From a virus (lineage: Duplodnaviria; Caudoviricetes), in the IMG/VR virus record IMGVR_UViG_3300018012_000099: a stretch of DNA of 64,000 bases; one strand, given 5' to 3'. Shown here one piece after another: positions 18,331 to 64,000 of this stretch. The position numbers and the translations under genes are program-made. Positions within the stretch are counted from its first letter, which is position 1. Every line of letters begins with the position of its first letter. The notes under the pieces were generated by a model. It saw only the letters and a program-made list of their open reading frames with translations. It was not told where the DNA came from and ran no database searches.

Positions 18331-18357
18331 AATGTAATATTTTGGTATACAGGTACA

Positions 18358-18672
18358 ATGAGCGCGGATCTTTTAAAGCAGGAATTTGTACCTAAATATT
18401 TAGAAAGTGGAGATGTTAAATTCTATCACTTTTTGCTGTTTTATGCTGTAAATAAGATGGTATTAATTGAACAGGGATTTGCTAAGTGCCTCACCCCTGA
18501 TATTGCATTTTTAGAGTGTCATGATCAATTTATAATTCTGTATAGAAGAGAGGGTGAAGAGTATTATTTACATATGGCTCGTGCTTTTCGCAAGGCAGCA
18601 CATAAACTTTATCGCGTTATGTTAAAGAAAAAATTAGCGACTTACAACCCACGATTTCTGAACTTGGTATGA
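18358..18672 (+). CDS. Hypothetical protein
   Basis: 104-aa ORF. Confidence 0.6.
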   Translation: MSADLLKQEFVPKYLESGDVKFYHFLLFYAVNKMVLIEQGFAKCLTPDIAFLECHDQFIILYRREGEEYYLHMARAFRKAAHKLYRVMLKKKLATYNPRFLNLV

Positions 18673-18673
18673 T

Positions 18674-19381
18674 ATGGAAACGAAAATATGTAGAACATGT
18701 AAAATAGAAAAAGAGGTTTCGTTTTTTAGGCAGAGGCATAATAAAAAACGAAACAAAATATACCGCAATAACGAGTGTATTGAGTGTCAAAGATTATATT
18801 GGGAAACCGAAGAATATAAAAATAGTAGAAAAATTTATTATCAAGAAAATAAAATAGAAATAAATAAACAACATCGTGAGTATAATGTTCTACACATAGA
18901 AGAAAAAAAAGAAAGAAGTAAACTTTATTATCAAGATAATAAGGATTCTATAAGAATTGTTCAGAAACAATATATTAAAAGACGAAGAAAAAATGATGTG
19001 TCTTTTAGATTAGGAGCCAGCGTATCTAAATCTATCAATAGAGCCATCAAATTGAATGGTAGTTTGAAATCTGGGAAATCGACATTTAAATATTTACCAT
19101 ATTCCAAAAAAGACCTAAAGGAACATCTTGAAAGACAATTTGAACCGTGGATGACTTGGGATAATTATGGTATTTATGATAGTAATGTTTGGAATGATGA
19201 TGATCCAAATACTTGGACATGGAATATCGATCATGTTATTCCTCATTCAGAATTTAAGTATGCCTCTATGGAAGATAATGAATTCAAACAATGTTGGGCT
19301 TTATCTAATCTTCGTCCGTTATCTGCTAAACAGAATTGGTTAGAAGGAATAAATAGATCTAGACATAAAGGTGATAGGTAA
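18674..19381 (+). CDS. Free-standing HNH-type endonuclease, family copy 2
   Basis: N-terminal CRTC...CIEC; HLERQFEPWMTWDNYG...IDHVIP...CWALSNLRPLSAKQN. Confidence 0.8.
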   Translation: METKICRTCKIEKEVSFFRQRHNKKRNKIYRNNECIECQRLYWETEEYKNSRKIYYQENKIEINKQHREYNVLHIEEKKERSKLYYQDNKDSIRIVQKQYIKRRRKNDVSFRLGASVSKSINRAIKLNGSLKSGKSTFKYLPYSKKDLKEHLERQFEPWMTWDNYGIYDSNVWNDDDPNTWTWNIDHVIPHSEFKYASMEDNEFKQCWALSNLRPLSAKQNWLEGINRSRHKGDR

Positions 19382-40992: not shown

Positions 40993-41829
40993 ATGCATTA
41001 TATTTATAGAATTACTAATACGGTTAATGGAAAAGTTTATATTGGTCAAACCAACAACCCACCCCTACGATGGTCGCAACACAAGTCTAATGCTAAATAT
41101 GATAGAGGACATCAAGTTATTACCCGAGCTATCACTAAATATGGAGCTAATGTTTTTGAGTTTGAGGTTATAGCTACTTGTCGCACACAAGATGATGTTG
41201 ATTTTGTTGAAGAGCAAGTAATACAGGAATACGATAGTCGTAATCCAGAAAAAGGATATAATGTAGATGTTGGCGGGAACACTTCGCCAAGAACACCAGA
41301 GATTGTAGCAAAAATATCTGCTGCATTAAAAGAACACTATCAGTATAATGAACATTTTCTTAAAGGAAAAATTCTTCCAGAAGAATGGAAAGAGAATATG
41401 TCCAAAGCTGCTATGGGTAAGCCCGGCACTAATACTGGAAAAACTTTTGATGATGAGTGGAAAAATAAAATCTCTAAATCACATGCCGGGAAAGAACAAA
41501 AATCAAGAAGACGATTTTCAGAAGAAATAGAAAAAGAGATATGTAGATTGTATACAATGGATAAATTATCTACTTACTCTTTAGGAAAGAAATTTGAAGT
41601 TCAAAGAACTACAATAGCAGACATTTTGAGAAGACACAACATAGAAACTAGGCAATCAAATTATACTGGTCATTCTAATAACTGTAATATATTTACTCTT
41701 GAACAGGAATTAGAAATATGCAGATTATATCAAGAGGGAAATATCTCTAGAACTGAATTATATAAAAGATTTGGTTGCGGTAAAACTACTATTAGAGATA
41801 TCTTGTTAAGACATAACATCAAACTATAA
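40993..41829 (+). CDS. GIY-YIG homing endonuclease with NUMOD3-like and duplicated C-terminal HTH
   Basis: YIYRITN..NGKVYIGQT; two E.EICRLY...F...(R/K)TTI.DIL.RHNI repeats; AGGAG RBS and TATAAT upstream. Confidence 0.88.
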   Translation: MHYIYRITNTVNGKVYIGQTNNPPLRWSQHKSNAKYDRGHQVITRAITKYGANVFEFEVIATCRTQDDVDFVEEQVIQEYDSRNPEKGYNVDVGGNTSPRTPEIVAKISAALKEHYQYNEHFLKGKILPEEWKENMSKAAMGKPGTNTGKTFDDEWKNKISKSHAGKEQKSRRRFSEEIEKEICRLYTMDKLSTYSLGKKFEVQRTTIADILRRHNIETRQSNYTGHSNNCNIFTLEQELEICRLYQEGNISRTELYKRFGCGKTTIRDILLRHNIKL

Positions 41830-46083: not shown

Positions 46084-46103
46084 TCGTTGATATATTTGTG
46101 GTT

Positions 46104-46829
46104 ATGAGCCAAAAGCGCATTCAATGGAATACTCAATTATTTGTGGAACGGTCCGCCGTCATCCACAATGGCAAGTATAAATATCCAGAAACATATATTA
46201 ATGCATTGACACCGATTGTAATTGAGTGTCCTATACATGGTCATTTTAAGCAGCAGCCACGACACCATTTAAACGGTCGTGGATGTCCAACATGTTTCCA
46301 TGAAAAATCAAGAAGTACTATCGATGATTTTGTTGAAAAAGCAAATGAAATTCATAATGGAAAATATACCTATCCTTGCAATTACATCAATTCTCGTACG
46401 TTAATAACTATTAGCTGTCCAATACATGGTTTGTTTGAGCAGAAGCCGCCTGTACATTTGGAAGGAAAGGGGTGTCCTTCTTGCGGAGATATTGCGAGAA
46501 GCGAATTTATTATGCCAATTATTTCTAAAATGGAAATAGACTGGCTCGATTCTCTTGGAATACCGCAAGAATATCGTCAGGCATCGCTTAAAATTGGTAG
46601 GAAAATAATCAAGGCGGATGCTTTTGTCCCGCCTACTAATACAGTTTATGAATTTTACGGTGACTATTGGCATGGCAACCCATTAAAATTTTCTTCTCAT
46701 TCTATAAATTCTGTTAAGGATAAGACATTTGGTGAGTTGTACCAGGCTACCCTTGCTCGCGAGCAGCTTATTGTTCAGGCTGGCTATAAAATCATATCTA
46801 TATGGGAATTAGACTGGAATAACCAATGA
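46104..46829 (+). CDS. DUF723-like repeat plus Vsr-like homing-type endonuclease
   Basis: Two HNGKY.YP...CPIHG.F.Q.P..HL.G.GCP.C repeats; EFYGDYWHGNP; paralog of 33..308. Confidence 0.8.
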   Translation: MSQKRIQWNTQLFVERSAVIHNGKYKYPETYINALTPIVIECPIHGHFKQQPRHHLNGRGCPTCFHEKSRSTIDDFVEKANEIHNGKYTYPCNYINSRTLITISCPIHGLFEQKPPVHLEGKGCPSCGDIARSEFIMPIISKMEIDWLDSLGIPQEYRQASLKIGRKIIKADAFVPPTNTVYEFYGDYWHGNPLKFSSHSINSVKDKTFGELYQATLAREQLIVQAGYKIISIWELDWNNQ

Positions 46830-47582: not shown

Positions 47583-49475
47583 ATGTCAAAAGAAAAGAAG
47601 CCTATCAGAGACCCGCATTCCAAGAGCACGTTACGTGATATCGTAATGAAGCCTAGTAGTGGCGTGTTTGATATGGCAGGGATTGAAAACCCAAATGAGT
47701 TAAATGAAAAAATCAAGAGGCTCATCAAGTTTTTTGAAGAGTATGGTATTGATTATAATAAGTTAGACGAAGAAAATGTTACCAAGATTGCTTATCCTAA
47801 CTATGATCAATATATGCACATTCCTGGTCAACATAATTTGAAGAGATGGTTAGAAACAATTAGAAATATTTATGTTAGTGAGAAAAGTGGGCTAGATCGT
47901 GCTAATGCTGTTCGTCAAGCGACCACTGGTTGGAATTTAATGGAAACTTATGATTTCTTGAATTGGATGAAGTTCTATCAAGAAGGAGCTCACTTGAAAT
48001 ACAAAACAGCACAACTTTGGTATGAAAATGGTCAGCCAGGTTACTTTTTACAGATCAAACCAGATCCTACTAAACCAGAAGAGTCTGTAGTAGATCATCA
48101 TGCTATTCGTGATACACAAGAAGACATCGAACGTCAGGAAGATAGGAAGCGTATCATTGAGAAGCAACGTCAAAAGATTATCGGTCGTTTAGATTCTGCT
48201 GAAAAGTTATTACGCTCTCCTGAAGGACAAATGTTTGCTGGTCCTGAATTAGAAAATCTTATGGAAGCTATTTATAGTTTGAAAAAGAGAGTGCAGTTAG
48301 TCAATAAACTCAGCACTTCTACTCGTTTGTATGAAGATATGATTGTGCGCGAAGGTAATGTTTTACGTCGTAAGGGTTTTATCAAAGCTGCCGAAGTACT
48401 ATATTCGGTAGCTCAAGCTAATAATCCACCTCCTCCAGGTATTGGTAAACCGGGACCTATTGAAGCATTACCGCAACCAGTTCCACCAGATGATCCATCT
48501 GGCGCTGGACATCCCGGTCTTCCCGGTACACTTCCATCTTTGGGACCGGGTATGCCACAAGCTCCTAAGAGCCCACCTTCTACTAGCGAGACACAACCAG
48601 TCGACTTGAAGCCAGTTCCAGTACCAGATGGCACTATCGCTCAAGGACCGCCTTCTCCTATGCCTGAAAGTGTGCCCAAAGGAATCGCAGAATTTCTTGA
48701 TCAGACCGAGACAGGCGGCAAGACTACCCCTGAGGAATTGGGCGCAGAGGACAATCTAGAAGTGCAGGACACTTTGGAAGTCGAAGATGATCAATTAATG
48801 GTAACAGAAGCTCAAATGGCACCACCAGGTCCAGTAGCAGAGGATGTTCCAATGACCACGGCTCCCCGTCGTCTAAAGCCGTCTGTTTCACCGCCAGTCG
48901 CGGAGAAACTACTTGAAGTGACTGAAGATACTCCTCCAGCCAATGAAGCCGGGGTGGAACAAGCTGCCCCCGCAGCTAAGGATTTCGATCGTATTATCGA
49001 TTCTGCTCTAGCCAATGTGACTGTCAATGATGTGGTAGCTAAACTGGAAGATATTGCCAAAATTTTCAAGACTAGAGAAATTCCTCGTCAATTAGCCATG
49101 GTAGATATGATGTTAGATAGTTTAAATTTGGCCTCTATGTTTCCTACTCTTTCCGAAGCCATCAATAAATCTCTCGAATCTAATAACTATGTCTCTACTC
49201 GTTTGGATGATATTATTGCTAGACTACGTGGAGCCATGGTTAGTAAAGAAGTGGATCTCAAGGGAGGTAGCAATGCTCCTCGCGCTGGCAGTGTAGCCAA
49301 AAATTTACAAGATCAAGCCGATAAAGATGAAGCTCGTAAGAAGATGAGAAAAGACCAAGAGACCGCTGAACTAGAAGGTGGCGCTAAACCATCTCCTCAA
49401 GTAGAAATTGGCGAAGACCTAGGTGCTCAACCTCCAGCCGCTCCGGCTCCACCACCTCCACGCCCAGTAGGCTAA
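47583..49475 (+). CDS. Hypothetical head-module protein with Pro-rich linkers
   Basis: 630 aa; several K-x-A motifs at apparent domain boundaries. Confidence 0.75.
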   Translation: MSKEKKPIRDPHSKSTLRDIVMKPSSGVFDMAGIENPNELNEKIKRLIKFFEEYGIDYNKLDEENVTKIAYPNYDQYMHIPGQHNLKRWLETIRNIYVSEKSGLDRANAVRQATTGWNLMETYDFLNWMKFYQEGAHLKYKTAQLWYENGQPGYFLQIKPDPTKPEESVVDHHAIRDTQEDIERQEDRKRIIEKQRQKIIGRLDSAEKLLRSPEGQMFAGPELENLMEAIYSLKKRVQLVNKLSTSTRLYEDMIVREGNVLRRKGFIKAAEVLYSVAQANNPPPPGIGKPGPIEALPQPVPPDDPSGAGHPGLPGTLPSLGPGMPQAPKSPPSTSETQPVDLKPVPVPDGTIAQGPPSPMPESVPKGIAEFLDQTETGGKTTPEELGAEDNLEVQDTLEVEDDQLMVTEAQMAPPGPVAEDVPMTTAPRRLKPSVSPPVAEKLLEVTEDTPPANEAGVEQAAPAAKDFDRIIDSALANVTVNDVVAKLEDIAKIFKTREIPRQLAMVDMMLDSLNLASMFPTLSEAINKSLESNNYVSTRLDDIIARLRGAMVSKEVDLKGGSNAPRAGSVAKNLQDQADKDEARKKMRKDQETAELEGGAKPSPQVEIGEDLGAQPPAAPAPPPPRPVG

Positions 49476-49489
49476 ATCAAAGCAAATGA

Positions 49490-51208
49490 ATGAAACTACG
49501 CGAACTACTTCAACAATTAGTGGCAGTTCAAAAAGCGATAGGCGCCTCCACGCCCTATATCACTGGAGGAACACCTCGCGATAAGTTTATGAATCGATTA
49601 GATAATGTAGCCGATATTGATATCACCACTGGTGATAAAACGGTAGATTATCTGTCGCAAGAATTTGCTATTCAATTACGTAAGAAATACAACGTCACCC
49701 GAAAGACTATGGACGATGGACATAGTACTATCTTCATTGGTAATTTGAAGGTAGATTTCTCTTCTAATTTCATTGTTAATGATATAGAATCTTATTTACA
49801 AAAAATGGGAATTACTAATCCCACCGATCTACAAAAAGAAATGTTTAGTAGGGATTTTACTTGTAATACACTTTTACTAACTGTAGATTTAAAAAAGCTA
49901 TTAGATCCGACCAAGCGCGGTTTTCGTGACATTAGGGAGAAGAAAATAAAGACTTGTCTTGCTCCAGAAATTACATTAACCTCTAATAGAAATAGGGTGA
50001 TTAGATCTGTCTATTTAGCTTGCAAGTTGGGTTTTGAAGTGGATAAATCTATTATCGATTTTGTGCGCCAAAATCCACAGACAGTTAAAATCTCCACTGA
50101 AAAGGTAATGAATGAGAAATTGAATCAAGCTTTCGAAAAAGATGGAGATAAAGCCGCTAAACTCATCACGGAAATGGGTTTATGGAGTCTAATTCCTATC
50201 ACCGAGAAAGTTTACCCTTACTATATGAAACAAATTAAAGGAAGTGTAAAAGCTCGTGCCGCTCTCTTCAATCGAATTGTTAAACAAGCTGACGATGAGA
50301 ATGACGGACCTAATTTCGATTACGGTAAAGGGTTGTATTCCAATATGGGTAAATACAAGAGTGTTAAAGATTTCGAAGAGCATGCCGACAAAGGTCCGAG
50401 CGCTTTCTTTGCTGATGACAATGAAGATCATATGATGCCGCCCAAAGAACATGGAACCAAAATCTATGATTGGAAGAATAGTCCGTATCAAGGTACGCCA
50501 AAAAAACCAATCAAGGACAAGCATAAGTCCGATGATAATGACTTGGGCACCGGCTTCTACGAAAACTTGGAACACTATCAAAGTGTTAGAGATTTCATCG
50601 AGCATACTCCATTAGGACGCGACCACGGTGCTAAAATAAAGCCAGAATGGGCGCGAGCTAAGGACGTCAATCATATCGATTTCCCGGTAGACGAAGATAT
50701 CAATCATGACAGCCTGATTAGACCGGAAGAAGGTCAGTATCAGCCACCCAGACTAGTGGGTCCGTCTGGCACTGATGATCGAACCGTGCAACCTAGCGAT
50801 ACCGGTTTTGATAGCCCACAAATCGAATTTACCTCTCCACAAATTGCTGGCGAGCATAGCTATACACCATTGGACGATTTCGATGGTAGGTCTAGTGATG
50901 CCCTCAATTTTGGTCGAGATTATGATGACGAATCTGCTCCTGTGGGTCGTACCTGGGATGAAGCTTTCGTCGATGATTTAGAAGCCGAGGTGCGGGAAAA
51001 GGAATGGGATTTAGATAGGTTAGCAGCTAAATATGACAATTTAGACGACATGGATATGTTATCTCCTGCCGAAACTGAAATCTATGGATTACCGGATGGA
51101 GTAGATCCGGAAGCTAAAGATGGTGCTCAAACTATCCAAACTGAAAACCCTTTTACAAATACTCTTGATATGGGTCGTCAAATGTATGAAGATAAGTGGA
51201 ACATTTAA
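49490..51208 (+). CDS. Class II CCA-adding/poly(A) polymerase-like nucleotidyltransferase fused to an acidic repeat tail
   Basis: GGTPRD, DIDITT, SRDFTCN, DP..G..D....I, SNRNRVIRS in the EDxxR position; about 265-aa enzyme plus about 305-aa tail. Confidence 0.85.
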   Translation: MKLRELLQQLVAVQKAIGASTPYITGGTPRDKFMNRLDNVADIDITTGDKTVDYLSQEFAIQLRKKYNVTRKTMDDGHSTIFIGNLKVDFSSNFIVNDIESYLQKMGITNPTDLQKEMFSRDFTCNTLLLTVDLKKLLDPTKRGFRDIREKKIKTCLAPEITLTSNRNRVIRSVYLACKLGFEVDKSIIDFVRQNPQTVKISTEKVMNEKLNQAFEKDGDKAAKLITEMGLWSLIPITEKVYPYYMKQIKGSVKARAALFNRIVKQADDENDGPNFDYGKGLYSNMGKYKSVKDFEEHADKGPSAFFADDNEDHMMPPKEHGTKIYDWKNSPYQGTPKKPIKDKHKSDDNDLGTGFYENLEHYQSVRDFIEHTPLGRDHGAKIKPEWARAKDVNHIDFPVDEDINHDSLIRPEEGQYQPPRLVGPSGTDDRTVQPSDTGFDSPQIEFTSPQIAGEHSYTPLDDFDGRSSDALNFGRDYDDESAPVGRTWDEAFVDDLEAEVREKEWDLDRLAAKYDNLDDMDMLSPAETEIYGLPDGVDPEAKDGAQTIQTENPFTNTLDMGRQMYEDKWNI

Positions 51209-51274: not shown

Positions 51275-52225
51275 ATGTCATTACAGTCCACCGCTCAAGA
51301 ACAGCTTTTTGTCGTAGATCCAACAGCGATTACGCCGTTGGAGGTGTCTGTTCCGCTCAATGAGGGCGAAATGGGTTCCCTAGGGCTCAGTGGAGATGTT
51401 TCTCCTGAGGAAATGGCGGGCGCTCCCGCTCTAGAAGTGCATGAGCCAGTAGACAACGTAGAAATTGTCGTTGAAGAACTCCCAGGCGCCCCAGCTGGCA
51501 CCAAGGATCCTGAGCCAATGTTGGAAGTCAGCGAGCCAGGTATACAGGTGGATGAGAAGTCAGCCGCCGATGATCAGGATGCCAAGAAGTCCAACAAGAA
51601 CGAAAGATGGGATTGGGCTTCTAAAGGACCACACGGATTCGTGGGGTGGGTACAAGAGAAGATTAGTAGTGTACCCAAGCACTCTGGCTACGACTCTGCC
51701 GGATTAGAGCGAGCTATGGCTTACATGGAGAAGCTAGATAGTGAAATCTCTAAGGCTATGAGAATGGACTTGGACGGCGAACTAGACGCCAATAAGATTG
51801 AAGAGGTTCGCTCCAAATTGGATGAGGGTATTGCTCGTTTGCAAGATCGTCTCGACAAAGTGAAAGAATCTAAGAAGTCCTCTCGCAAGCGCAAAAAGTC
51901 TGCCGATGAAGCTTCTGAAGGTTTGGTCAAAGAGGCCCAGAAAATTTTGGGTGTGCAAGGCGTGTACATTATGGCTCCTCTGCTGATTTCGGGTATTGCC
52001 AGGATTTGTATTAATGGTTGCATTTCAGCCGGTCATGACATAAGTGATTTGTATCTTCGTCAAGTTAAGCAATGGAAATTGTCCGATCGTGAACAATTTG
52101 AGTTGAAGCAATTATTATTCGATATGGGGTTCCCGATGCCATATGATAGAAGCGTAATGGCTAATGAAGATTTCGATCCCGGTTCTGCGGATAACTATGA
52201 ATTAATGCAACAATTCAAGGGTTAA
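51275..52225 (+). CDS. Hypothetical head-module protein
   Basis: GAGG RBS; acidic N-terminal half. Confidence 0.7.
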   Translation: MSLQSTAQEQLFVVDPTAITPLEVSVPLNEGEMGSLGLSGDVSPEEMAGAPALEVHEPVDNVEIVVEELPGAPAGTKDPEPMLEVSEPGIQVDEKSAADDQDAKKSNKNERWDWASKGPHGFVGWVQEKISSVPKHSGYDSAGLERAMAYMEKLDSEISKAMRMDLDGELDANKIEEVRSKLDEGIARLQDRLDKVKESKKSSRKRKKSADEASEGLVKEAQKILGVQGVYIMAPLLISGIARICINGCISAGHDISDLYLRQVKQWKLSDREQFELKQLLFDMGFPMPYDRSVMANEDFDPGSADNYELMQQFKG

Positions 52226-52231
52226 GCGATC

Positions 52232-52900
52232 ATGTCTAAATACACCAGATATCAGTCAGTAGTCTCTAGAAATACTGACGAACATATTAGTGAAGATCAT
52301 TGGCTTAAGCAATTTGAAAAGTCTTTGGAGAAGGGCGCAGTACAACCCCGCCCTCAGAGTTCGCTGTACGACCAAATCAATTCTATCATGAATGGTACCC
52401 CATCCAAGTATCCTTCTGTGCAAGCAGCCGTGGATGATATGATGCAGCGTAGCGGTCTTAGTAATTATCTTAAAACTTCTAAAGAAAACGATGAGGGTAA
52501 TAAGAAAATAGCTGGCGATCAAAATGATAATTTTGACAAAACCATTCCCGTCGAACAAAAACAACAAGACACAAATATTCCGGATATTATTCGTGAAAAT
52601 CCAGCTATTCTCAAAACATTAGAGAATTATATTAGATCTACCCGTGGTAACTTACCTATTCCAGCTATTATAGATAAACTGCATTCTATTCATCGTACAG
52701 ATGTGCCAAAAGATAAAATGTGGGACGATGACAAACTCATTAGATTAGTTAGTAAACTAAATCTTGAAGCCAAAAAAAATAATCCAGCTAACTATGAGGA
52801 TTATGCCAATTTGGCAGTGGGTGATCGTGATACAGCTGATTCGAATGTGGATCCATCCAATACGGACGCTTTTAATGCTTTAATGCCAGCCAAATTGTAA
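52232..52900 (+). CDS. Hypothetical head-module protein
   Basis: 222 aa directly upstream of the terminase. Confidence 0.7.
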   Translation: MSKYTRYQSVVSRNTDEHISEDHWLKQFEKSLEKGAVQPRPQSSLYDQINSIMNGTPSKYPSVQAAVDDMMQRSGLSNYLKTSKENDEGNKKIAGDQNDNFDKTIPVEQKQQDTNIPDIIRENPAILKTLENYIRSTRGNLPIPAIIDKLHSIHRTDVPKDKMWDDDKLIRLVSKLNLEAKKNNPANYEDYANLAVGDRDTADSNVDPSNTDAFNALMPAKL

Positions 52901-52908
52901 TTAAATAA

Positions 52909-54786
52909 ATGACAACATCTGAGAAAGATATTTTTCTAAAATTGAAAAGACAGCTGCTTATGCTTGATCCGGTCTCTTTTTGCCAGACCTATCTCAATTT
53001 AGATGGAAAGCCTTTTACTCTAAGTGGTAATGGATACAAGCCTTTCTGTGACATTTATCGATATATTGGTATCAAGGCTTTAGAACGTAACTCTAAACCC
53101 GTTATTATGGTTAAGGGTCGTCAGGTTGGCGCCACCACTATGGCTAGTGCCTTAGAAATGTATTTCATGGGCTCTGGTATGTTTGGTAACGGCGAAAGAC
53201 CACCCATTCGCGTTATTCACACTTTTCCACAATTGGAACTGGCAGCGGCGTATTCTAAGACCAAGCTCAACCAAATGATCATTACCTCTCTCGTCCCGGA
53301 GGGCGTGGAACAAAAGAGCGGCTCCAAACCGAAGTCCTACATGCAACTCTTGTTGGACCAAAGCGCTTCAGCCAGCGAGTCCTTACATTTTAAGCAGTTC
53401 GCGGGTGGTAATCACTTATGGGTAGAATCTACTGGCGTTGATGCAGACCGTATCATGGGTCGTACCGCTGATGTTATCTTTTTTGATGAAGTACAGAAGA
53501 CCACTGATTTGGCATTAGGTAATGCTCTCAAGATTTTAACTACTGCTAAGTATGGTGAGCCATCTAAAGGGGTGAGAATTTATTTTGGTACGCCTCGTCG
53601 TAAAGGTTCTGATTTCCACAAGATGTGGCAGAACTCTTCTCAACAATATTATTACTTAGGTTGCGAAAACTGCGAAAAACACTTCCCACTCTACACTCCT
53701 GGCTCTAATAATTGGGAAAAAATCTGGATTCACGGCTACACTGTCAAATGTCCACTCTGTGGACATGAACAAAACAAATTAGAAGCTGCCGAGCGCGGCA
53801 AGTGGGTTGCCTTTAAAGATCCTAATGATGATGATTGTAACATGATTGGTTTCCATATCAATCAACTTTACATGCCGATGTTTACTCGTGAAGCTATTGA
53901 GAATGAAAAGCCGGGTAAGCACCCCATTAATACCGAACGTGTTTTTATGAATGAAGTTTTGGGAGAATTCTTTCAAGGAGATTCTAGTCCCATTACTCCT
54001 GACGAAGTGCGTCTTTTTTGTGCCGATCATGAAAGAAAGTTTTCTCCTAGTATCGTTCCAAGTAAGGGTTTAATGCAGCAGATTGCCGTGTTGGGTATCG
54101 ATTATGGTGCCCGTTCTGATTTGGAACAATTAGCTCAACCAGATAAGATTACCAGTCGCGGTCAATCCTATAGTACTGCAGTGGTGCTACTGTCTAAAGG
54201 TCCCGGTTTACTATCTATTGAATTTGCGATGAAATTCAAAAGAAACGATCCTGCTCATAAGAAAGGCATCATAGACCAGTTGATTAGACAATACAATATT
54301 CAACTAGCAGTAGGAGATATTGGTTACTCTAATGACTTTTCTCAAGACCTACAAAATGTCTATGGAGATAAGTATTTGGTTTCTCGTGCTCATCCGTCAG
54401 TCAATGAACATGTTAAGTTTAGACATGATACTTTTCCAAAAGAAATTCTTTTCGAAAGAGACTATTATATTGCTCAGCTCTATGAACAAATGAAAAAAGG
54501 AATGATTAGATTTCCTTATGGTGATTATGAAAGAATTGCTTGGTTGATAGAACATTGTTGTAGTATGGAGATTAAACCTTCTATTTCTAGAACTGGTGGC
54601 GATCCTAGTGTCCATTATGTCAAAGGTGGTACACCAAATGATGGTTTCATGGCTTTACTTAACGCTTATATTGCTTATAAGTTCTTGGTAACCAGAGGGT
54701 TTACTCACAATAACCCTTTACTACAGAATGAAAGAAACATTAATAAACCAATGGTTTTGAGTGGATATGTGTCCAGAAAATTCTAA
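52909..54786 (+). CDS. terL: Terminase large subunit
   Basis: KGRQVGATT Walker A, VIFFDEVQ Walker B, GTP coupling motif, CENC...CPLC, RNase H-like VLGIDYG. Confidence 0.88.
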   Translation: MTTSEKDIFLKLKRQLLMLDPVSFCQTYLNLDGKPFTLSGNGYKPFCDIYRYIGIKALERNSKPVIMVKGRQVGATTMASALEMYFMGSGMFGNGERPPIRVIHTFPQLELAAAYSKTKLNQMIITSLVPEGVEQKSGSKPKSYMQLLLDQSASASESLHFKQFAGGNHLWVESTGVDADRIMGRTADVIFFDEVQKTTDLALGNALKILTTAKYGEPSKGVRIYFGTPRRKGSDFHKMWQNSSQQYYYLGCENCEKHFPLYTPGSNNWEKIWIHGYTVKCPLCGHEQNKLEAAERGKWVAFKDPNDDDCNMIGFHINQLYMPMFTREAIENEKPGKHPINTERVFMNEVLGEFFQGDSSPITPDEVRLFCADHERKFSPSIVPSKGLMQQIAVLGIDYGARSDLEQLAQPDKITSRGQSYSTAVVLLSKGPGLLSIEFAMKFKRNDPAHKKGIIDQLIRQYNIQLAVGDIGYSNDFSQDLQNVYGDKYLVSRAHPSVNEHVKFRHDTFPKEILFERDYYIAQLYEQMKKGMIRFPYGDYERIAWLIEHCCSMEIKPSISRTGGDPSVHYVKGGTPNDGFMALLNAYIAYKFLVTRGFTHNNPLLQNERNINKPMVLSGYVSRKF

Positions 54787-54860: not shown

Positions 54861-56756
54861 ATGGCTAGTAATAAACCCCCTAAACAATGGCAGGGACCAT
54901 CAAAATCAGACCAATATATGGATAAGCGTTCAACTGTTCCACAAGTTAGCGCTATTATGGCCCAAGGTGTTTCCAAAGAAAGAAGAGCGATTCTTTCTGA
55001 TGAAGTTGATCAGGGTGCATTTCGTGATGGTTCTGGACCTACCTACAGTCAGAGAGTAGCAGAAAATCTTGAAACTGCTAACGCCCGTGTCGTGGCATCT
55101 GTTGGTGGATTCAAAAAGAACGCTCAAGTAGTTAGTAGTGTGGGCGGTATGTTCCGTGGTATTCACGGAGATTCTGTCAAACAAACTCCTGAAGTATATT
55201 CTCCTCTGTGGCTCAATTCCAACCTTAATCTACCCCGTGATAGGGCTACTATCAATGCTTGGTGTCGTAGCTTTTATGCTTTGAATCCTTTCGTACATAA
55301 TGCTATCAATCTTCACAGTACTTACCCAATTAGTAAGCTAAGCATTAAGTGTCCTAATAAAGATATTGAGAAGTTCTTCAACGATATGATTGAAGAAATC
55401 GATTTGATGAACATATGTGTACAAATCGCTCAGGAGTACTGGTTACTCGGTGAAGCCTTTGTATATTCTGAACTAGATGAAAGCAAAGGTAAGTGGAGTC
55501 GTTTGCTGATTCAGAACCCAGACTTTATGGTGGTTAAGCGTACCGTAGTGGCTAATGAACCTATTATCCAATTGCGTCCAGATCCTAATCTACAAAAGAT
55601 TATCTTCTCTAACCGTCCTAGTGATATTGAACAGCGCAAACAATTAAACCAACATATCATTGATTCGGTGCGTCGTGGTGAAAATATTCCTCTAGACAAC
55701 TTTCATGTTTCTCATTTGGCTCGTCGTATCAGTCCTTATGAAATCAGAGGTACTGGACTACCAGTCTGTATTTTTCGTCAATTGATGTTATTTGATAAGT
55801 TACGCGAATCCAAATATGCTCAAGCTGATAATATGATCAATCCACTCACCATCGTTAAGATTGGTTCGGCTGATTATAAACCTACTTTCGCCGACTTAGA
55901 AGCTTGGAGAAGTACTTTCGAAGAAGCTCAATATGATAAGGATTTCAAGATTTTTACTCATGAAGGCGTAGATGTTACTAGAGTAGGTTATGGTCAAGGT
56001 ATCTACGATATTTCTGGTGATATTACTCAGTTAGTTAAAGAAATCTACGTGGGACTTCAGGTTCCACCGGTGTTGATGGATGGTGGTGCCGATACTACTT
56101 ACGCCAATGGTGGTGTAGCTTTAGATGTTTTGCGTCAGCGTTACATGCAGTTTCGTAATATGATGTCCCAGTGGTTGAAACGCAAAATCTTTGCTCCTAT
56201 CTCCAAAATTCAAGGATTCTACGATTATTCCGGTGGAGAGAAGCAGCTCATCGTTCCAGAGATTGACTGGAATCATATGTCCTTGTTCGATGCCGGAGAT
56301 TACATTAATAGCATCGTCACTTTAACTCAAGGCACTGATGAAGCTAAGAGAGTTTCTTTGCATACCCTATATCGTTCGATCGGTTTGGAATTTGAAGATG
56401 AAACTCGTAAAATTCGCAAGGAAGCTATCCAAAACGCCATTGCCAAAAAGGAAAAGGCAGCTTTGGAGGCTATGGACCTCAACGCTCTTCGTGCTCTGGA
56501 TGAGGAAGATGAAATTCCGGAACCAGAAAAGAAGCCAGGACAAGAAGAACAGCCAGTTCCGGGCGAAACTCCAGGTGGCGCACCACCTCCAGGTGGTATG
56601 CCAGATTTGGGATTGCCGAGTGGTCCGCCTCCAGGTCCGCTTCCAGGTGGAGGAGCCGCAGCGCTTCCTGCGGCACCTCCAGGTGGCGAGGCGCCCCCGG
56701 GCGGTGGGACACCCCCAGCCGCTCCGCCAGTAGGCGGACCACCGCCCGGTCCATAA
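54861..56756 (+). CDS. Portal protein with Pro/Gly-rich C-terminal tail
   Basis: Follows terL; NPFVHNAIN, YWLLGEAF, H.....SPY..RG, VPPVL..G, TYAN, Q.R pattern typical of portals. Confidence 0.78.
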   Translation: MASNKPPKQWQGPSKSDQYMDKRSTVPQVSAIMAQGVSKERRAILSDEVDQGAFRDGSGPTYSQRVAENLETANARVVASVGGFKKNAQVVSSVGGMFRGIHGDSVKQTPEVYSPLWLNSNLNLPRDRATINAWCRSFYALNPFVHNAINLHSTYPISKLSIKCPNKDIEKFFNDMIEEIDLMNICVQIAQEYWLLGEAFVYSELDESKGKWSRLLIQNPDFMVVKRTVVANEPIIQLRPDPNLQKIIFSNRPSDIEQRKQLNQHIIDSVRRGENIPLDNFHVSHLARRISPYEIRGTGLPVCIFRQLMLFDKLRESKYAQADNMINPLTIVKIGSADYKPTFADLEAWRSTFEEAQYDKDFKIFTHEGVDVTRVGYGQGIYDISGDITQLVKEIYVGLQVPPVLMDGGADTTYANGGVALDVLRQRYMQFRNMMSQWLKRKIFAPISKIQGFYDYSGGEKQLIVPEIDWNHMSLFDAGDYINSIVTLTQGTDEAKRVSLHTLYRSIGLEFEDETRKIRKEAIQNAIAKKEKAALEAMDLNALRALDEEDEIPEPEKKPGQEEQPVPGETPGGAPPPGGMPDLGLPSGPPPGPLPGGGAAALPAAPPGGEAPPGGGTPPAAPPVGGPPPGP

Positions 56757-58153: not shown

Positions 58154-59281
58154 GTGGCTAATTTGGGTTCTAACTTTTATTCTAAGTTAGTACAGCTAGC
58201 CGCAGAAACAGGAATGAAGCCAGAAGATATTTTGGCAGTCATGGTTTCTGAGTCCGGTGTTAATCCTGCTGCACATAATCCTCACGGAGGTGCTACCGGT
58301 TTGATGCAATTCATGCCACAAACCTTACCAAGTGTTGGTTTTCACGGTAGCCCGTCTGATTTTGGTATGCTGTCTGGTGAGGATCAATTACCCTATATCA
58401 AGAGATTGATTGAGGGTAATATGCGTTTGAATGGTGGTCCTTTTACTAACGCTGCCCAATACTATGTAGCTGTTTTTTGGCCGGTAGGTCTTAAGTTACC
58501 TGGAGTACGTCATGGTAATCCTAATACACCTATTGTAGAAGAGAATCCAGAATCAATAGGCGGATACAGTAAAAAATATTACGATATGGGAATTAAAATT
58601 CCTGTGGGTCAAGAACGTGCTGCTTATAAAGCGAACCCACTTTTTCATGGTAATATTCCGGGCACTATCACTTACGGCGATATGATGAAGCAAATAGATA
58701 AGAATAGGAGAAATCCATTATATTCTAAAGCTTTGATGGCTATGAACGAACAAACTGGATATGAACCTGATACCATATCTCTTACTCCTATGTTGGCTCA
58801 ACGTACCAAATTACCCACACATCAATCAAATAATTTTATGGATATTTTAAATCAGTTTGTACATTACCTATCGACAGTTGCCTCTGAACAGCATACAAGT
58901 AAGAAGATATACAAGAAAATGTTACCCAATCATGATATACTTATTCAAATTACTGCGCCCGATTATACTAGCGCTATTGAATTTTCTCGTATTCTTTGTG
59001 CGGCTCTTGATGAAGAAGTGCAGGCCAGTGCGTATCCTCATACCGATGGTAGTCAAATAGTGGAAGTAGAATGCTCTATTCCTGGACCAGCTTTAGGATG
59101 TTTACAAGCTGTAGAACAATTAAATCAATCTCTTACTGAAACTTTTAAGGACGCTACCAAGAAAGTGGGTGGAATTGTAGTTAAAACTCACTGTATAATG
59201 AATAAAAAGTCATCATATCAACAAATCAGCTTGAGGACTGCTGAGACTAATTATAGAAAATTCCTCCTAAAATTTATATAA
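58154..59281 (+). CDS. Lytic transglycosylase (SLT) fused to an unrelated C-terminal domain
   Basis: ILAVMVSESG (catalytic Glu), GATGLMQFMP; GTG start after GGAGG. Confidence 0.82.
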   Translation: MANLGSNFYSKLVQLAAETGMKPEDILAVMVSESGVNPAAHNPHGGATGLMQFMPQTLPSVGFHGSPSDFGMLSGEDQLPYIKRLIEGNMRLNGGPFTNAAQYYVAVFWPVGLKLPGVRHGNPNTPIVEENPESIGGYSKKYYDMGIKIPVGQERAAYKANPLFHGNIPGTITYGDMMKQIDKNRRNPLYSKALMAMNEQTGYEPDTISLTPMLAQRTKLPTHQSNNFMDILNQFVHYLSTVASEQHTSKKIYKKMLPNHDILIQITAPDYTSAIEFSRILCAALDEEVQASAYPHTDGSQIVEVECSIPGPALGCLQAVEQLNQSLTETFKDATKKVGGIVVKTHCIMNKKSSYQQISLRTAETNYRKFLLKFI

Positions 59282-59722: not shown

Positions 59723-60466
59723 ATGAGAACACTCGATGAGATCGTACAACTTGCCGACAACTTTGAACAACGTTGTCAAGATAGTTTGGTAAAGATTGCG
59801 GTGGTCCGCAAATTACCAAACGGCAAGTATCGTGTACTTTCTCAAAAGGGTAAGAACTTAGGAACCTTCGATTCGGAAAAGGCTGCTAACAAACATCTCA
59901 GACAGGTGGAGTATTTCAAACACCTAGATAAGTCGCACGCCGAGGACGATACCTCCGTTATCGATTTGACTGATGCCGACGAATTTGCCTATTCTGCCAT
60001 CATGCGTAAAATGCGTGAAAAGGCTTCTAAAGAGCAGGTAACCATTTTCCTCAAGCTATTCAAAGCCGAATTCGATCGTGCCGTCAAAGCTAAGTTGAAG
60101 AAGCCAGAGCGTTTGGCTTTACAAAACGCTCTGGTCAAGTTCAACAAACTACATAAGATTAAGCTAAGCAAGAAGATGGTCAAGAGTGCAGCCGTTAGCG
60201 AGTTGGGAGACTCCAGGGCTGTTGGCGCCTATTTGGCTAATATCGTCACTTTTATTCTCAATCGTGTGCCACCTGACCATAGACTTATCGCTCGCGATAG
60301 ACTCAAGCAAAAGTTTGCTTTAATGAATACAGATGACATCGCTTCCAAACATTTGCCCGACTCCGCAGCCGTTGCTCAATCTATTACCTTTGTCAAGCAC
60401 GTGCTATTCAATCATGACTCCAACTACATTAAAGAAGTTCTTAACGCCCTGGTGAGCGCACTATGA
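59723..60466 (+). CDS. Hypothetical head-module protein
   Basis: Contains the small phage-type module VRKLPNGKYRVLSQKGKNLGTFDSEKAANKHLRQVE. Confidence 0.7.
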   Translation: MRTLDEIVQLADNFEQRCQDSLVKIAVVRKLPNGKYRVLSQKGKNLGTFDSEKAANKHLRQVEYFKHLDKSHAEDDTSVIDLTDADEFAYSAIMRKMREKASKEQVTIFLKLFKAEFDRAVKAKLKKPERLALQNALVKFNKLHKIKLSKKMVKSAAVSELGDSRAVGAYLANIVTFILNRVPPDHRLIARDRLKQKFALMNTDDIASKHLPDSAAVAQSITFVKHVLFNHDSNYIKEVLNALVSAL

Positions 60467-61248
60467 TACACCGATTGCGTAAAGTCGCAGACGGTTTGTT
60501 CCGTGGTAGCGCTCCGACACCAAAGGATGTTTTATGGCTCAAAGAAATTTTAGGCATCAAGAAGATTGTGTCTTTAGATAAAGAGGCTGGTGATAAAATT
60601 GATCGTGCTTGTAAAATGTTGGGTATTGATCATGTCAAAGCTTATATAGAAGGTGTAGATAGAAAGTCTTTGTATAATGTTTTGAGTCAAAATTTGAAGC
60701 ATCTATTAATAGATGGTGGTCCTACATATTTTCATTGTCATGAAGGTAAAGATAGAACTGGTTTACTTGCTGCTTTATTTAAGTGTAAATATATGGGCAT
60801 GGATCCGGAGGCTGCTATTACTGAAGCCAAATCTTTAGGATTTGGTGTTGGTATTCCGCCAGAGATTACTCACCTATATGAGAAGTTGATTCGCGCCTGT
60901 AAACCGCATAAAGATCCAGATGTTAATAATGCTGATATAGTCGGTAATGAAAGAGAGTATATCAGTGATAATCGCGATACTTTCTTGGATGAGAGCCGTC
61001 AAAGCTCTTGGGCTCCATACCTAGATCATACTCGTCAAAACCCAATGGATGCCGTTTATGTTTATATAAATGACCAATCTCCTACTCGTGAAAATTACCA
61101 ACAAACTTGGAAAGAGCCGAAGGAGAGGTTGGAAGAAGCAATAAATTCGCATGAAGATACCATACCTCAAGTTGGCACTTTTAATAATGATGCGGGCGCT
61201 AGAGGATTTGGACCCACCGAAAACTATAGTGGATTTTTTTATGATTAA
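60463..61248 (+). CDS. Cys-dependent (PTP/dual-specificity, Siw14-like) phosphatase
   Basis: LFRGSAP, GIKKIVSL, P-loop FHCHEGKDRTG. Confidence 0.85.
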   Translation: MIHRLRKVADGLFRGSAPTPKDVLWLKEILGIKKIVSLDKEAGDKIDRACKMLGIDHVKAYIEGVDRKSLYNVLSQNLKHLLIDGGPTYFHCHEGKDRTGLLAALFKCKYMGMDPEAAITEAKSLGFGVGIPPEITHLYEKLIRACKPHKDPDVNNADIVGNEREYISDNRDTFLDESRQSSWAPYLDHTRQNPMDAVYVYINDQSPTRENYQQTWKEPKERLEEAINSHEDTIPQVGTFNNDAGARGFGPTENYSGFFYD

Positions 61249-62146: not shown

Positions 62147-64000
62147 ATGCCATTTAACAAATACGGTGAAACTGTTGAGATTAGAATTGAAAACACGGAA
62201 TCGTGTATTCCAGCAGTGAGTCCTGAGATTTTGGAAAACTTCCAGAAGTTTGCTACCAATCTGAAAAAGATTGCGCCAAAGGCAGAAGACTTCTTGTACT
62301 TTTCTGCGGTTATGATGCACGCTGCTGAAGCAGCCGCCCTCAATGACGATGGCACCCCAAGAATGACCGCCAAGGGCGAAGCCGCCCAAGTGAGCTGGGA
62401 TAAAAGCAATAATACTTGGAAATGGGTATCTAATGACCCTAACATTAAGCCATATAAGAATTCTAATGGCGACATTTTCCCCGAAGAAGAATTAGTTAAA
62501 GCACATAAAAAGTGGGTTCACAAGCCTCTTTGCATCGATCATAAGTCCAGTTCGGTAGATCATGTAAGAGGTTTTATTGTTGATACATATTATGATCGCA
62601 ATCTCAAGCGAGTGATTGCGTTATGCGCTTTGGACAAGGCAGGCTATCCTCAATTAGCTAGAAACGTCTCTACGGGCATTTCTAACTGCGTCTCCATGGG
62701 TACGGCTGTGGGTCGTGCTATCTGCACCGATTGCTCCCGTGTGGCTCGTACCGAACAAGATTTTTGTTCTCATATGAAGAATAAGTCTTGCTACGGTGAA
62801 ATCAATATAGACTTGAATCCAATAGAATTATCAATAGTAATGAATGGAGCTGATCAAAGAGCTACCATTAAGCATGTTCTAGCTGCTGCCAATACCCTCA
62901 ATACTTATGTTGAGAATAAGCAAAAGGAATTAGCCAAATTAGCTGATCTGAGTTTTTCAGCTAGTTTGATCGTAAATGACCCACAAGGTATTGAAGGTGG
63001 TGGTTCATCTACCTTCCAGGTAAATGGAAATAATATAGATAAATTCAAGGCCGATCTTGATGAAGCCTTCCAAAGATTGACCGAAATAGCCAATGCTGCA
63101 AAAAAATCTGAAAAAGATACTAATCTTTCAGCATTTAATCAATCGTCGGGCTCCATCTCTATGGATGAAAGTGCCGAAACAGATTCTGGATTGGCTCTCC
63201 AAACTCCGCAAACCGTTAGGTTTGCATCTGCTGATGAGGCAGGTATCAGTGAGCTTCGTGAAGTTACAGCTGCTATCGAAGCCAAACTCAACCAAATGAA
63301 ACACAGCTTGGATAAGTTAGCACAAACTTCTATAAAAACACAAGAGGAAACAATGACTGGATCAAACGAACTGAATAAGAAGGGTTACTACCAGGGAGCC
63401 GGCGGCGTGAATGAGCCAACTCCAGGTCAAGCAAAATATCCTAAGGACCCCCTCAACGAACAACTTCGTGAGAATGAGGATAAACAAATGGTAGGTCAAC
63501 CACCTTTCCCAGGTGTGGGCCCAGTTGATGGAATGCACCCTTCTCCGGGTTCTGCGGATCCATCTGATGAACTACAACGTAAGAAGATGTTAGCCCGTGC
63601 CGAAGCTGAAGAGCGCGCATTGCGTCGTCAAGCTATCGTCAACTTGGCTAAGGAAGCCTTGCAGAATAAGGAAGCTTATTTCCAAGGTGGCGGTGGTGTT
63701 AACGAACCCACTCCAAACAAGCCAAAGTATCCTAAGGACAAGCTCAACGAAGAGTTGCGTGAGTACGAAGATAAGCAGATGGTTGGTCAACCACCTTTCC
63801 CGGGCGTCGGTCCAGTCGATGGCTTACATCCTTCTCCTTCTTCCGCTGATCCTAAGGACGAGTTGAAGCGTAAACAAATGCTCGCTCGTGCTAATGCTCT
63901 CACTGGTCGTTTTACCAAAGCTGCTAATGAAGACGGCACTCTCAACCAGGGCAACAGTGCTTGGGAAATCTTCCTCGGCGAGAAGCTCTTGTTAACTGCT
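62147..64000 (+). CDS. Prohead protease-scaffold polyprotein, 3'-truncated by the window (absent from the ORF track)
   Basis: Open for 618 codons from MPFNKYG; NSNGDIFPEEEL, IDH, VSMG, C..C...FC.H, ELSIV..GAD assemblin/HK97-like protease pattern, followed by helical and repeat regions. Confidence 0.8.
   Translation, partial: MPFNKYGETVEIRIENTESCIPAVSPEILENFQKFATNLKKIAPKAEDFLYFSAVMMHAAEAAALNDDGTPRMTAKGEAAQVSWDKSNNTWKWVSNDPNIKPYKNSNGDIFPEEELVKAHKKWVHKPLCIDHKSSSVDHVRGFIVDTYYDRNLKRVIALCALDKAGYPQLARNVSTGISNCVSMGTAVGRAICTDCSRVARTEQDFCSHMKNKSCYGEINIDLNPIELSIVMNGADQRATIKHVLAAANTLNTYVENKQKELAKLADLSFSASLIVNDPQGIEGGGSSTFQVNGNNIDKFKADLDEAFQRLTEIANAAKKSEKDTNLSAFNQSSGSISMDESAETDSGLALQTPQTVRFASADEAGISELREVTAAIEAKLNQMKHSLDKLAQTSIKTQEETMTGSNELNKKGYYQGAGGVNEPTPGQAKYPKDPLNEQLRENEDKQMVGQPPFPGVGPVDGMHPSPGSADPSDELQRKKMLARAEAEERALRRQAIVNLAKEALQNKEAYFQGGGGVNEPTPNKPKYPKDKLNEELREYEDKQMVGQPPFPGVGPVDGLHPSPSSADPKDELKRKQMLARANALTGRFTKAANEDGTLNQGNSAWEIFLGEKLLLTA
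63377..63892 (+). repeat. Two 75-aa direct repeats (63377..63601 and 63668..63892) in the protease-scaffold ORF
   Basis: K(KG/EA)Y(Y/F)QG.GGVNEPTP...KYPKD.LNE.LRE.EDKQMVGQPPFPGVGPVDG.HPSP.SADP.DEL.RK.MLARA; 291-nt period. Confidence 0.9.

Follow-up and report, generated by a model that had tools for sequence, protein, structure and literature searches.

A predicted minimal CCA/PAP-type nucleotidyltransferase with an altered template motif, encoded ahead of the packaging genes of a giant wetland phage

What is a nucleotidyltransferase that resembles CCA-adding enzymes doing just ahead of the DNA-packaging genes of a giant wetland phage? The window (the whole stretch of 64,000 nucleotides that was analysed) comes from such a phage, and the gene in question occupies 49490..51208 (all coordinates below refer to the + strand). 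The ORF is intact and translates to 572 aa (P0001), in which a mini class II nucleotidyltransferase continues in frame into an acidic and disordered part. An identical 572-aa product was called in two independent assemblies and the sequence is present on 7 contigs. The sequencing runs containing the gene are all wetland DNA metagenomes, with no RNA run among those listed. No paralogue of either the tail or the head of the 572-aa protein was found within the window.

The enzyme domain and the canonical CCA enzyme

The nucleotidyltransferase domain (residues 1-251, 49490..50242) is basic (pI 9.3) and was assigned as head and neck only from Pfam, AF2 and Foldseek results. Residues 23-153 match PF01743 at 44.8 bits against a cut-off of 23. 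Motif A (G26-G27-T-P-R30-D31) with the catalytic D42-I-D44 (49565..49621) was scored as invariant in 74-107 homologues; position by position, G26, G27, R30, D42, D44 and D89 were invariant in 74 aligned homologues and D31 was kept in at least 90%. The D89-F-S triplet (49754..49762), assigned by conservation to the position of the third catalytic carboxylate, has D89 and S91 invariant and F90 in at least 90% of the same 74 sequences, and D-F-S is present in nearly every listed member among 202 family members. Motif B (49847..49867) starts at S120-R121-D122 and, by family comparison, reads S-R-D-F-T-C-N where the canonical form is R-R-D-F-T-I-N. R172 is likewise invariant, and S-R-D nearly so, across homologues down to 28% identity. 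Conservation of these residues to such a depth argues for selection on catalysis. The original prediction of an intact catalytic head was borne out, with PF01743 above its cut-off and GG..RD, DxD, D89 and SRDFTCN all present.

The AF2 model of the enzyme domain (pLDDT 96.9) was matched by Foldseek to 6qy6 (E 3e-11, TMq 0.67), followed by about 45 CCA/PAP chains; matches to CCA-adding enzymes had TMq values of 0.6-0.68. The modelled fold ends near residue 265, and about 240 residues are matched in CCA enzymes of about 370-420 aa, covering head and neck only. No HD, body or tail domain was found, Pfam and NCBIfam being silent beyond about residue 240, which agrees with the earlier claim that such domains are missing. 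The body and tail domains of CCA enzymes hold the tRNA acceptor and T arms (PMC3925840). Residues 91-119 of the mini-enzyme have the length of a flexible loop, are without B-x-A or loop-like sequence and are modelled as ordered. For class II CCA-adding enzymes, the flexible loop with its upstream B-x-A motif is required for A76 addition. Together these results identify the product, as far as its sequence and modelled fold can tell, as a conserved class II nucleotidyltransferase of the CCA/PAP type with an altered template motif.

The same phage encodes a canonical CCA enzyme of 412 aa about 16 kb past the end of the window, with PolyA_pol, RNA-binding and tRNA_NucTran2 domains. Its gene forms a unit of its own on the opposite strand, and its product retains EDGLR, RRD and the flexible loop. 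Canonical and mini-enzyme genes occur together in 3/3 related genomes. Because the canonical copy is encoded in the same phage, the mini-enzyme is not the phage's housekeeping CCA enzyme.

Compared with class II CCA-adding enzymes (6qy6, 1miv, 3h39 and the phage's own 412-aa copy), the mini-enzyme shares the head and neck fold, motif A, the third carboxylate, motif C, the Arg of motif D and the R-D of motif B. It differs from them in being without the tRNA-binding body and tail, in having SNRNR for EDxxR and SRD for RRD, in having no recognisable flexible-loop sequence or B-x-A, in its fusion to an acidic disordered module and in its place within a head module. The best sequence and fold matches were the split CC- and A-adding enzymes (Aquifex 4wby/1vfg; S. 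pombe cca1/cca2, 9ns2/9ns4), whose hosts, like this phage, have two class II paralogues per genome. However, the split enzymes retain the template Asp and Arg and a full four-domain body. Moreover, splitting CC and A addition between two enzymes would be superfluous here, as the canonical paralogue is itself complete, with loop and EDGLR. The poly(A) polymerase PcnB (3aqk-3aqn) resembles the mini-enzyme in its class II head and neck, and template-independent tailing of RNA is an activity that the two might share. Unlike PcnB, the mini-enzyme is without the PAP signature ([LIV][LIV]G[RK][RK]Fx[LIV]h[HQL][LIV]), for which a regex search gave no match in P0001 or any of 270 stored proteins, and it scores 33 bits with the pcnB model against a cut-off of 306. 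Bacterial PAP also retains E-D-x-x-R (PMC2532741).

The mini-enzyme belongs to a large, uncultured family of huge-phage proteins of about 245 aa. Searches with the gene by megablast and tblastn gave no homologue at E <= 1e-5 in INPHARED (50,697 cultured phage records), and so the family is known from metagenomes only. The TerL of this phage is at most about 26% identical to that of any isolate.

The template motif across the family

The textbook example of nucleotide selection by a protein side-chain template comes from the class II CCA/PAP enzymes. The motif D template of the mini-enzyme (residues 165-169, 49982..49996) reads S-N-R-N-R where the canonical motif is E-D-x-x-R. HMMER aligned it without gaps to the E-D-P-L-R of solved CCA- and A-adding enzymes, confirming the register originally proposed. 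The template reads [ST]-N-[KR]-N-R in 107 close homologues; this check covered the close clade. Across the 202 family members the template Asp position holds Asn, Asp, Ser, Gln or His and the template Arg is essentially invariant. Crown-clade members have Asn there, and basal clades have Asp. The suggested check on conservation of SNxxR gave a split answer: the close clade shares the motif, but basal members retain Asp, so that Asn marks a clade and not the family as a whole. At least 19 changes of the template residue were counted on the family tree. The Ser of motif B (SRD instead of RRD) is found in 199/202 members; RRD takes part in ribose recognition (PMC2910056).

These data bear on whether the product is simply a redundant enzyme adding CCA (or CC, or A), or else an inactive remnant with a purely structural role. 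The nearest PHROG and NCBIfam models are labelled tRNA nucleotidyltransferase, and CC-adding enzymes likewise vary at the first template position (PMC11784652), both of which fit an ordinary enzyme. However, when a randomised E-D-x-x-R library offered Asn and Ser, the Asp and Arg were never replaced in A- or CCA-adding clones in vivo (PMC11784652), and here the Asp is replaced. The scores also fall far under all NCBIfam equivalog cut-offs, at 50 bits against 290 (NF009814) and 45 against 439 (TIGR02692), as with pcnB above. With the body and tail domains and the PAP signature missing, and a canonical copy in the same genome, an ordinary enzyme is very improbable; the invariant catalytic residues place an inactive remnant in the same very improbable class.

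It does not follow that the nucleotide choice has changed. Hydrogen bonds from Asn to C or A are still possible, and since the template Arg is retained the choice may be unchanged, whilst variation as frequent as that seen on the tree could mean relaxed, not new, base reading. An altered NTP choice is a proposed feature of this enzyme. A large natural family whose template Asp has repeatedly given way to Asn, Ser, Gln or His while the catalytic residues were retained is a natural experiment on specificity, and could supply new RNA 3'-end tailing activities.

The head neighbourhood and the acidic module

The gene lies among head genes, as originally described, with terL the third gene downstream and portal next. 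Upstream is a proline-rich, disordered protein of 630 aa without a Pfam or PHROG match (47583..49475), syntenic in 13/13 loci. Small conserved genes for proteins of 316 and 222 aa (51275..52900) separate the nucleotidyltransferase gene from terL, the large terminase subunit (52909..54786; PF05876 and phrog_675, E 8e-58), which is followed by the portal protein gene (54861..56756; phrog_16240, E 1.6e-51). An SLT transglycosylase and a gene of the Tyr-phosphatase fold lie between portal and a prohead protease-scaffold fusion (62147..64000; phrog_18299 head maturation protease, E 1.8e-12), which runs off the window and has a full length of 1222 aa (P0267). The MCP gene lies beyond the window, at about 76.3-77.3 kb in its coordinates. 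The suggested check of synteny with terL and portal gave a clear answer: the order 630-aa protein, nucleotidyltransferase, tail, 316-aa protein, 222-aa protein, terL is kept in 10/10 loci reaching terL, and portal comes next in all 9 loci extending far enough. A relative at 32% identity is also found about 3.6 kb before TerL. Within the late head and packaging module, the position of the nucleotidyltransferase gene is thus fixed.

Its position directly ahead of the terminase genes would also suit an enzyme that serves head assembly or DNA packaging, adding untemplated nucleotides to genome ends or nucleotidylating a head or packaging protein and leaving host RNA alone. The family-wide change of the ribose-recognition motif from RRD to SRD fits such a role, as does the prediction that Pol-beta NTases in polyvalent proteins modify proteins (PMC5512222). 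However, the fold and the closest relatives are all those of RNA 3'-end enzymes. We know of no precedent for a CCA/PAP-type family acting on DNA or protein. Moreover, one relative (P0253) has its nucleotidyltransferase fused to HAD_SAK, the HAD domain of the 'Swiss Army Knife' RNA-repair proteins, which links the family to RNA. A role in assembly or packaging is for these reasons quite unlikely.

The second part of the protein (residues 268-572, 50291..51205) is acidic (pI 4.4, net charge -39) and predicted to be mostly disordered (pLDDT 57). Conserved tail motifs comprise two G-x-G-x-Y..Y-x-S-V-x-D-F repeats, I-D-F-P-x-D, L-x-F-G-R-D-Y, G-L-P-D-G and the C-terminal Y-E-D-K-W-N-I. Pfam gave no match for stand-alone tail proteins and NCBIfam none for the tail of the 572-aa protein, and the ESM Atlas held nothing usable for the tail protein or the 630-aa neighbour. 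For relatives, the tail is a separate, overlapping downstream gene, so that enzyme and tail are either fused or encoded by overlapping ORFs. The two parts meet at a hinge helix (K-A-R-A-A-L-F-N-R-I-V-K-Q-A, 50243..50290), which is where the similarity to the relatives' separate tail protein begins and which ends at an insertion hot spot. K265-Q266-A267 (50282..50290) is the module boundary, and domain insertions of relatives fall exactly there. The claim that the enzyme ends at VKQA with an acidic tail following was therefore right as to boundary and acidity; the tail is not a simple appendage but a homologue of a separate downstream gene.

It had also been proposed that the tail is cleavable, with the prohead protease cutting V-K-Q-A|D inside the head and freeing a 267-residue enzyme. 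The phage does encode a prohead protease, K265 is at least 90% conserved with Ala next in no fewer than half of the relatives, and the site falls on the module boundary with its insertion hot spot. Against this, K-x-A is very low in information and too short to separate from chance, and the conserved helix is explicable as a structural hinge. Relatives moreover offer a better candidate for cleavage or targeting in the A-Y-F-Q-G-G-G-G stretch shared with the scaffold, which is missing from the 572-aa protein. We regard cleavage at V-K-Q-A|D as unlikely.

That stretch belongs to a 25-aa peptide which opens the tail module in 92/95 relatives and is otherwise limited to two copies, each within the protease-scaffold protein; the pattern holds for a complete 480-kb relative and for the scaffold of this phage. 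The first scaffold copy here reads K-K-G-Y-Y-Q-G-A-G-G-V-N-E-P-T-P..K-Y-P-K-D (63377..63451) and the second K-E-A-Y-F-Q-G-G-G-G-V-N-E-P-T-P..K-Y-P-K-D (63668..63742), the latter being the same peptide as at the start of the relatives' tail module. A homology of the whole N-terminal unit of about 100 aa of the tail protein with the scaffold repeat was rejected, as the first 25 residues alone are significantly alike. The 572-aa protein has lost the peptide and has no significant similarity to the scaffold. Y-E-D-K-W-N-I was likewise considered as a shared targeting tag and ruled out, since it occurs once per genome and is unique to the nucleotidyltransferase-tail protein.

Another relative (P0193) has a nucleotidyltransferase fused to Phage_lysozyme2 (phage tail lysozyme) at the syntenic place. 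Fusion patterns of the lysozyme type have been taken in published work to indicate injection (PMC5512222). With the peptide that relatives share with the scaffold and the lysozyme fusion in one of them, the head link is stronger than could be told when it was first proposed; the fusion or ORF overlap of enzyme and tail and the synteny also tie this family to the head.

Packaged effector or cytoplasmic enzyme

We tentatively favour, at somewhat less than even confidence, an active minimal phage RNA nucleotidyltransferase that the acidic module carries into the procapsid and that adds non-CCA nucleotides early in infection. The enzyme would be a paralogue that has diverged from the canonical CCA-adding enzyme of the same phage; it would have retained the catalytic head and nucleotide-binding neck, whilst the body and tail that hold the tRNA, the flexible loop and the E-D of E-D-x-x-R would be gone. 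Its acidic disordered partner would belong to the head-morphogenesis module and would bring it into the procapsid, either to stay inside or to be ejected. Once delivered, it might add nucleotides other than the regular CCA to the 3' ends of RNAs, the targets being either host RNAs or tRNAs that host defences have damaged or blocked. Counting against packaging are the loss of the scaffold-shared peptide from the 572-aa protein, its want of significant similarity to the scaffold and the uniqueness of its C-terminal motif; nor does a late-operon position alone prove it.

A real possibility, if a less than probable one, is that the enzyme is expressed late and stays unpackaged in the cytoplasm, where it would repair or tail the 3' ends of tRNA or other RNA alongside the canonical CCA enzyme, with the acidic module as an adaptor or regulator replacing the tRNA-binding domains. 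An example of such a role would be restoring tRNA ends or removing blocks there. The HAD_SAK fusion of P0253 fits this, as does the investment of the phage in tRNA functions through its canonical cca, and a basic enzyme with an acidic tail could be autoregulatory. Auxiliary tRNA genes are usually mobile in position among phage genomes. The nucleotidyltransferase gene, unlike these, is held at a single position ahead of terL in relatives as distant as 32% identity, which argues against cytoplasmic repair. The canonical cca, moreover, is a separate unit on the opposite strand, and a cytoplasmic enzyme would have no obvious use for a peptide otherwise found only in the scaffold or for a lysozyme fusion.

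The packaged reading can be taken further. In its fullest form, the lineage would load a re-specified, template-independent RNA nucleotidyltransferase by means of a scaffold-related carrier, inject it with the DNA and use it, as soon as infection starts, to mark or mend RNA 3' ends with non-CCA nucleotides, with the 25-aa peptide (A-Y-F-Q-G-G-G-G-V-N-E-P) acting as a capsid-targeting or protease-recognition tag. This version we consider doubtful. Capsid-targeting peptides are known from the HK97 protease C-terminus, the T4 capsid-targeting sequence and encapsulin cargo peptides. The resemblance lies in a short conserved peptide common, among relatives, to the scaffold/protease and the partner of a cargo-like enzyme; the difference is that the candidate peptide is missing from the 572-aa protein. 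Such a peptide could be a handle on cargo loading into huge-phage heads.

A rewritten base-reading site with an acidic, capsid-assembly-linked fusion may represent an undescribed virion-borne RNA-modifying enzyme; we found no description in the literature of a CCA/PAP-type enzyme as a packaged effector. The fullest form of the packaged reading, if true, would define a new class of early effector carried by virions. RNA-end modification, if capsid-carried, would join the short list of activities delivered with phage DNA and would matter for the contest over defences that target tRNAs. The packaged and polyvalent phage enzymes (T4 Alt, N4 virion RNAP, P1 DdrB; PMC5512222) differ in that the mini-enzyme family is known here from genes alone and its carrier module is a new protein. 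They are alike in having an enzyme among late virion genes, and the disordered capsid-assembly-linked carrier and the relatives' fusions to lysozyme, PcfJ-like and repeat domains are further likenesses, the PcfJ-like domain being that of relative P0117.

The nucleotidyltransferase gene and its fold

The stretch 49490..51208 on the plus strand is an open reading frame with a 572-aa product. An identical product was called in two independent assemblies and the protein was found on seven contigs, the longest of 245 kb; therefore, the fusion of nucleotidyltransferase (NTase) and tail is no artefact of assembly. Residues 23-153 match the Pfam poly(A) polymerase/CCA head domain (44.8 bits against a cut-off of 23), and the PHROGs label for the protein is 'tRNA nucleotidyltransferase'. 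HMMER aligned the segment K-I-K-T-C-L-A-P-E-I-T-L-T-S-N-R-N-R-V-I-R-S-V-Y-L-A-C-K-L-G-F without gaps to solved enzymes, such that S165-N-R-N-R169 (nt 49982..49996) falls on their E-D-P-L-R. The third gene 3′ of the NTase gene is terL, and the portal gene comes next. The original prediction had the ORF, the head domain, the gapless SNRNR alignment and the place three genes before terL all correct (Pfam, HMMER, ORF check).

Residues 1-265 were modelled with AF2 on 74 homologues at very high confidence (pLDDT 96.9, pTM 0.90). Foldseek matched the model to class II enzymes adding CCA, A or CC and to bacterial poly(A) polymerase (PAP), covering their head and neck; TM scores are 0.6-0.68 by query and no more than 0.4-0.5 by the ~370-420-aa targets. 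The mini-NTase therefore lacks the body and tail domains, which in CCA enzymes grip the tRNA acceptor and T arms (PMC3925840). That no tail domain is present had been read from the sequence, and it agrees both with this head-and-neck coverage and with the lack of any Pfam or NCBIfam family match past approximately residue 240. The nearest AlphaFold-DB cluster is an unnamed metagenomic protein of 254 aa (TM 0.86-0.90). The PAP signature was not found in the protein, which also scores far too low for the NCBIfam equivalogs of CCA enzymes and PcnB. Whilst the fold and chemistry are already known, the minimal architecture appears undescribed, and we consider it very probable that the gene encodes an active, phage-specific mini class II NTase distinct from the CCA enzyme.

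Template variation and the co-resident CCA enzyme

Word-indexed and exhaustive searches returned ~200 close and ~2,000 remote homologues, all metagenomic and many on contigs of 200-511 kb, with none among 50,697 cultured phage records. TerL identity to any isolate is ~26% at most, and the samples carrying the lineage are wetland metagenomes. The family is that of an uncultured huge-phage lineage. Across 202 full-length domains G-G..R-D, D-x-D, D-F-S and the template Arg are essentially invariant, and S-R-D replaces R-R-D in 199. In known enzymes RRD helps to recognise the ribose and B-x-A helps to position the primer (PMC2910056), whilst base pairing by the E-D-x-x-R template (motif D) is carried out by its Asp and Arg (PMC2532741). 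The position of this Asp is occupied by Asn in 117 domains, Asp in 50, Ser in 18, Gln in 6 and His in 4. Orthologues mostly keeping EDxxR would have spoken against the original prediction; instead, [ST]-N-[KR]-N-R or something very similar stands in every one of the 107 close homologues. A FastTree phylogeny, from which the template columns were removed beforehand, has basal clades with Asp (22/23 in one clade) and a 92-leaf crown clade, containing the window's protein, with Asn in 83. At least 19 switches between Asp and non-Asp occur on the tree, against ~45 with shuffled labels. The tree is rooted at its midpoint; it is the canonical outgroup, not the tree itself, that makes Asp the probable ancestral state. 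Both the family-wide SRD and the repeated rewriting of the template appear undescribed.

Walking along the window's own contig located a canonical CCA-adding enzyme of 412 aa on the minus strand, from approximately window coordinate 80,179 onward (L021:20774-21200, on the contig past the window end). It comprises PolyA_pol, PolyA_pol_RNAbd and tRNA_NucTran2_2 and lies antisense to structural genes. Canonical copy (129-135 bits) and variant (49-51 bits) were both present in all three related IMG/VR genomes; the canonical copy retains GGCVRD, the Y-S-D-G-R-R-P loop, RRD and EDGLR. Judged by sequence, the window's NTase is not the phage's CCA enzyme. When the template was randomised in a library that allowed Asn and Ser at every position, all clones adding A or CCA in vivo had kept Asp165 and Arg168; the first template position varies among CC-adding enzymes (PMC11784652). 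An ordinary CCA- or A-adding role is therefore unlikely. We regard an ordinary or dead enzyme as highly improbable. Even so, Asn together with Arg might still pair with C or A. We infer an altered nucleotide specificity, and the chances of a product other than CCA are evenly balanced. One review of jumbo phages credits them only with CCA-adding enzymes restoring tRNA 3′ ends and mentions no packaged copy.

The acidic tail module and the peptide that relatives share with the scaffold

Residues ~252-572 are homologous to a separate disordered acidic protein of ~355-425 aa. In the relative L001 and eight IMG/VR loci this tail protein is the next ORF after an NTase gene of 252-257 aa, overlapping its end by 10-32 nt in a different frame (L001:9253-11272, L009:10001-11828 and six more loci). 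Twelve loci were examined, and in nine of them (L001 and the eight from IMG/VR) the +1 frame holds the second ORF. This overlap, with fused versions elsewhere, could reflect translational coupling or a programmed frameshift. The majority of the family are in-frame fusions with the complete tail protein; the first ~100 residues of the module are missing from three of 95 tails, namely the window's protein and its nearest relatives P0002 and P0003. The module has a pI of 4.4 and a net charge of -39, and is predicted to be mostly disordered (pLDDT 57), yet several short motifs in it are conserved and the ..Y-E-D-K-W-N-I at its C-terminus is invariant. The domain boundary originally placed at V-K-Q-A is borne out, as the helix ending there is a true hinge, exactly 3′ of which relatives carry inserted Cys-rich, HEAT-like and other domains. 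The hinge and its inserts have no bearing on cleavage at 267/268, which was proposed for the same site and is improbable. Inserts after ..V-K-x-A were seen in relatives P0012, P0034, P0037, P0087, P0114, P0199 and P0026, and include Cys-rich putative zinc modules, a ~400-aa HEAT-like block and a cysteine-peptidase-like segment.

In relatives the tail module opens with K-K-A-Y-F-Q-G-G-G-G-V-N-E-P-T-P..K-Y..D. Two copies of this 25-aa peptide (63377..63451 and 63668..63742) lie in the phage's own 1222-aa prohead protease-scaffold, a protease with a long acidic scaffold (62147-64000, running past the window end; full length at L002:11685-15350). The scaffold contains two ~97-aa repeats, each starting with A-Y-F-Q-G-G-G-G-V-N-E-P, which could be autoprocessing or capsid-binding sites. 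A complete 480-kb relative contains the peptide three times, the tail protein having one copy and the scaffold two, with zero matches to a reversed-pattern control. Coupling of an NTase to a disordered protein bearing a scaffold peptide appears undescribed. In the window's own protein the peptide is missing and similarity to the scaffold is not significant, and the C-terminal motif of the tail was not found in other proteins; both count against a link to the head. Capsid association is put forward tentatively, at somewhat below even chances. Its main rival, a cytoplasmic late RNA-end enzyme with the disordered module as an adaptor, is rather less likely.

Gene neighbourhood and fusions

All ten loci extending far enough share the order 630-aa protein, NTase, tail, 316-aa protein, 222-aa protein, terL, with the portal after terL in the nine that reach it. 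A stand-alone enzyme of 32% identity likewise lies ~3.6 kb before TerL. This constant position appears undescribed. That the NTase acts in packaging or on DNA ends is quite unlikely and, like an ordinary or dead enzyme, ranks below the cytoplasmic alternative. As regards capsid association, in one basal relative the gene at the syntenic position fuses the NTase to a phage tail lysozyme, and a lysozyme fusion amid late genes has been taken as a mark of injection with DNA (PMC5512222). Other basal relatives carry fusions to a PcfJ-like domain or to the HAD domain of Swiss-Army-Knife RNA-repair proteins.

Further along the module come genes for an SLT transglycosylase, for a protein of Tyr-phosphatase fold, for the protease-scaffold and for the major capsid protein (phrog_2522, E 1e-78). 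The SLT lytic transglycosylase (58154-59281) and the Cys-type (Y_phosphatase2/3) phosphatase (60463-61248), between the portal and protease genes, are possibly further internal or ejected enzymes. The 630-aa neighbour (47583-49475), always found before the NTase, is proline-rich, largely disordered and without a family match. Homing-endonuclease-type genes (GIY-YIG/HNH, HNH, LAGLIDADG and another endonuclease) are scattered in the structural module (40993-41829, 46098-46829; L021:8251-9090, 17992-18828).
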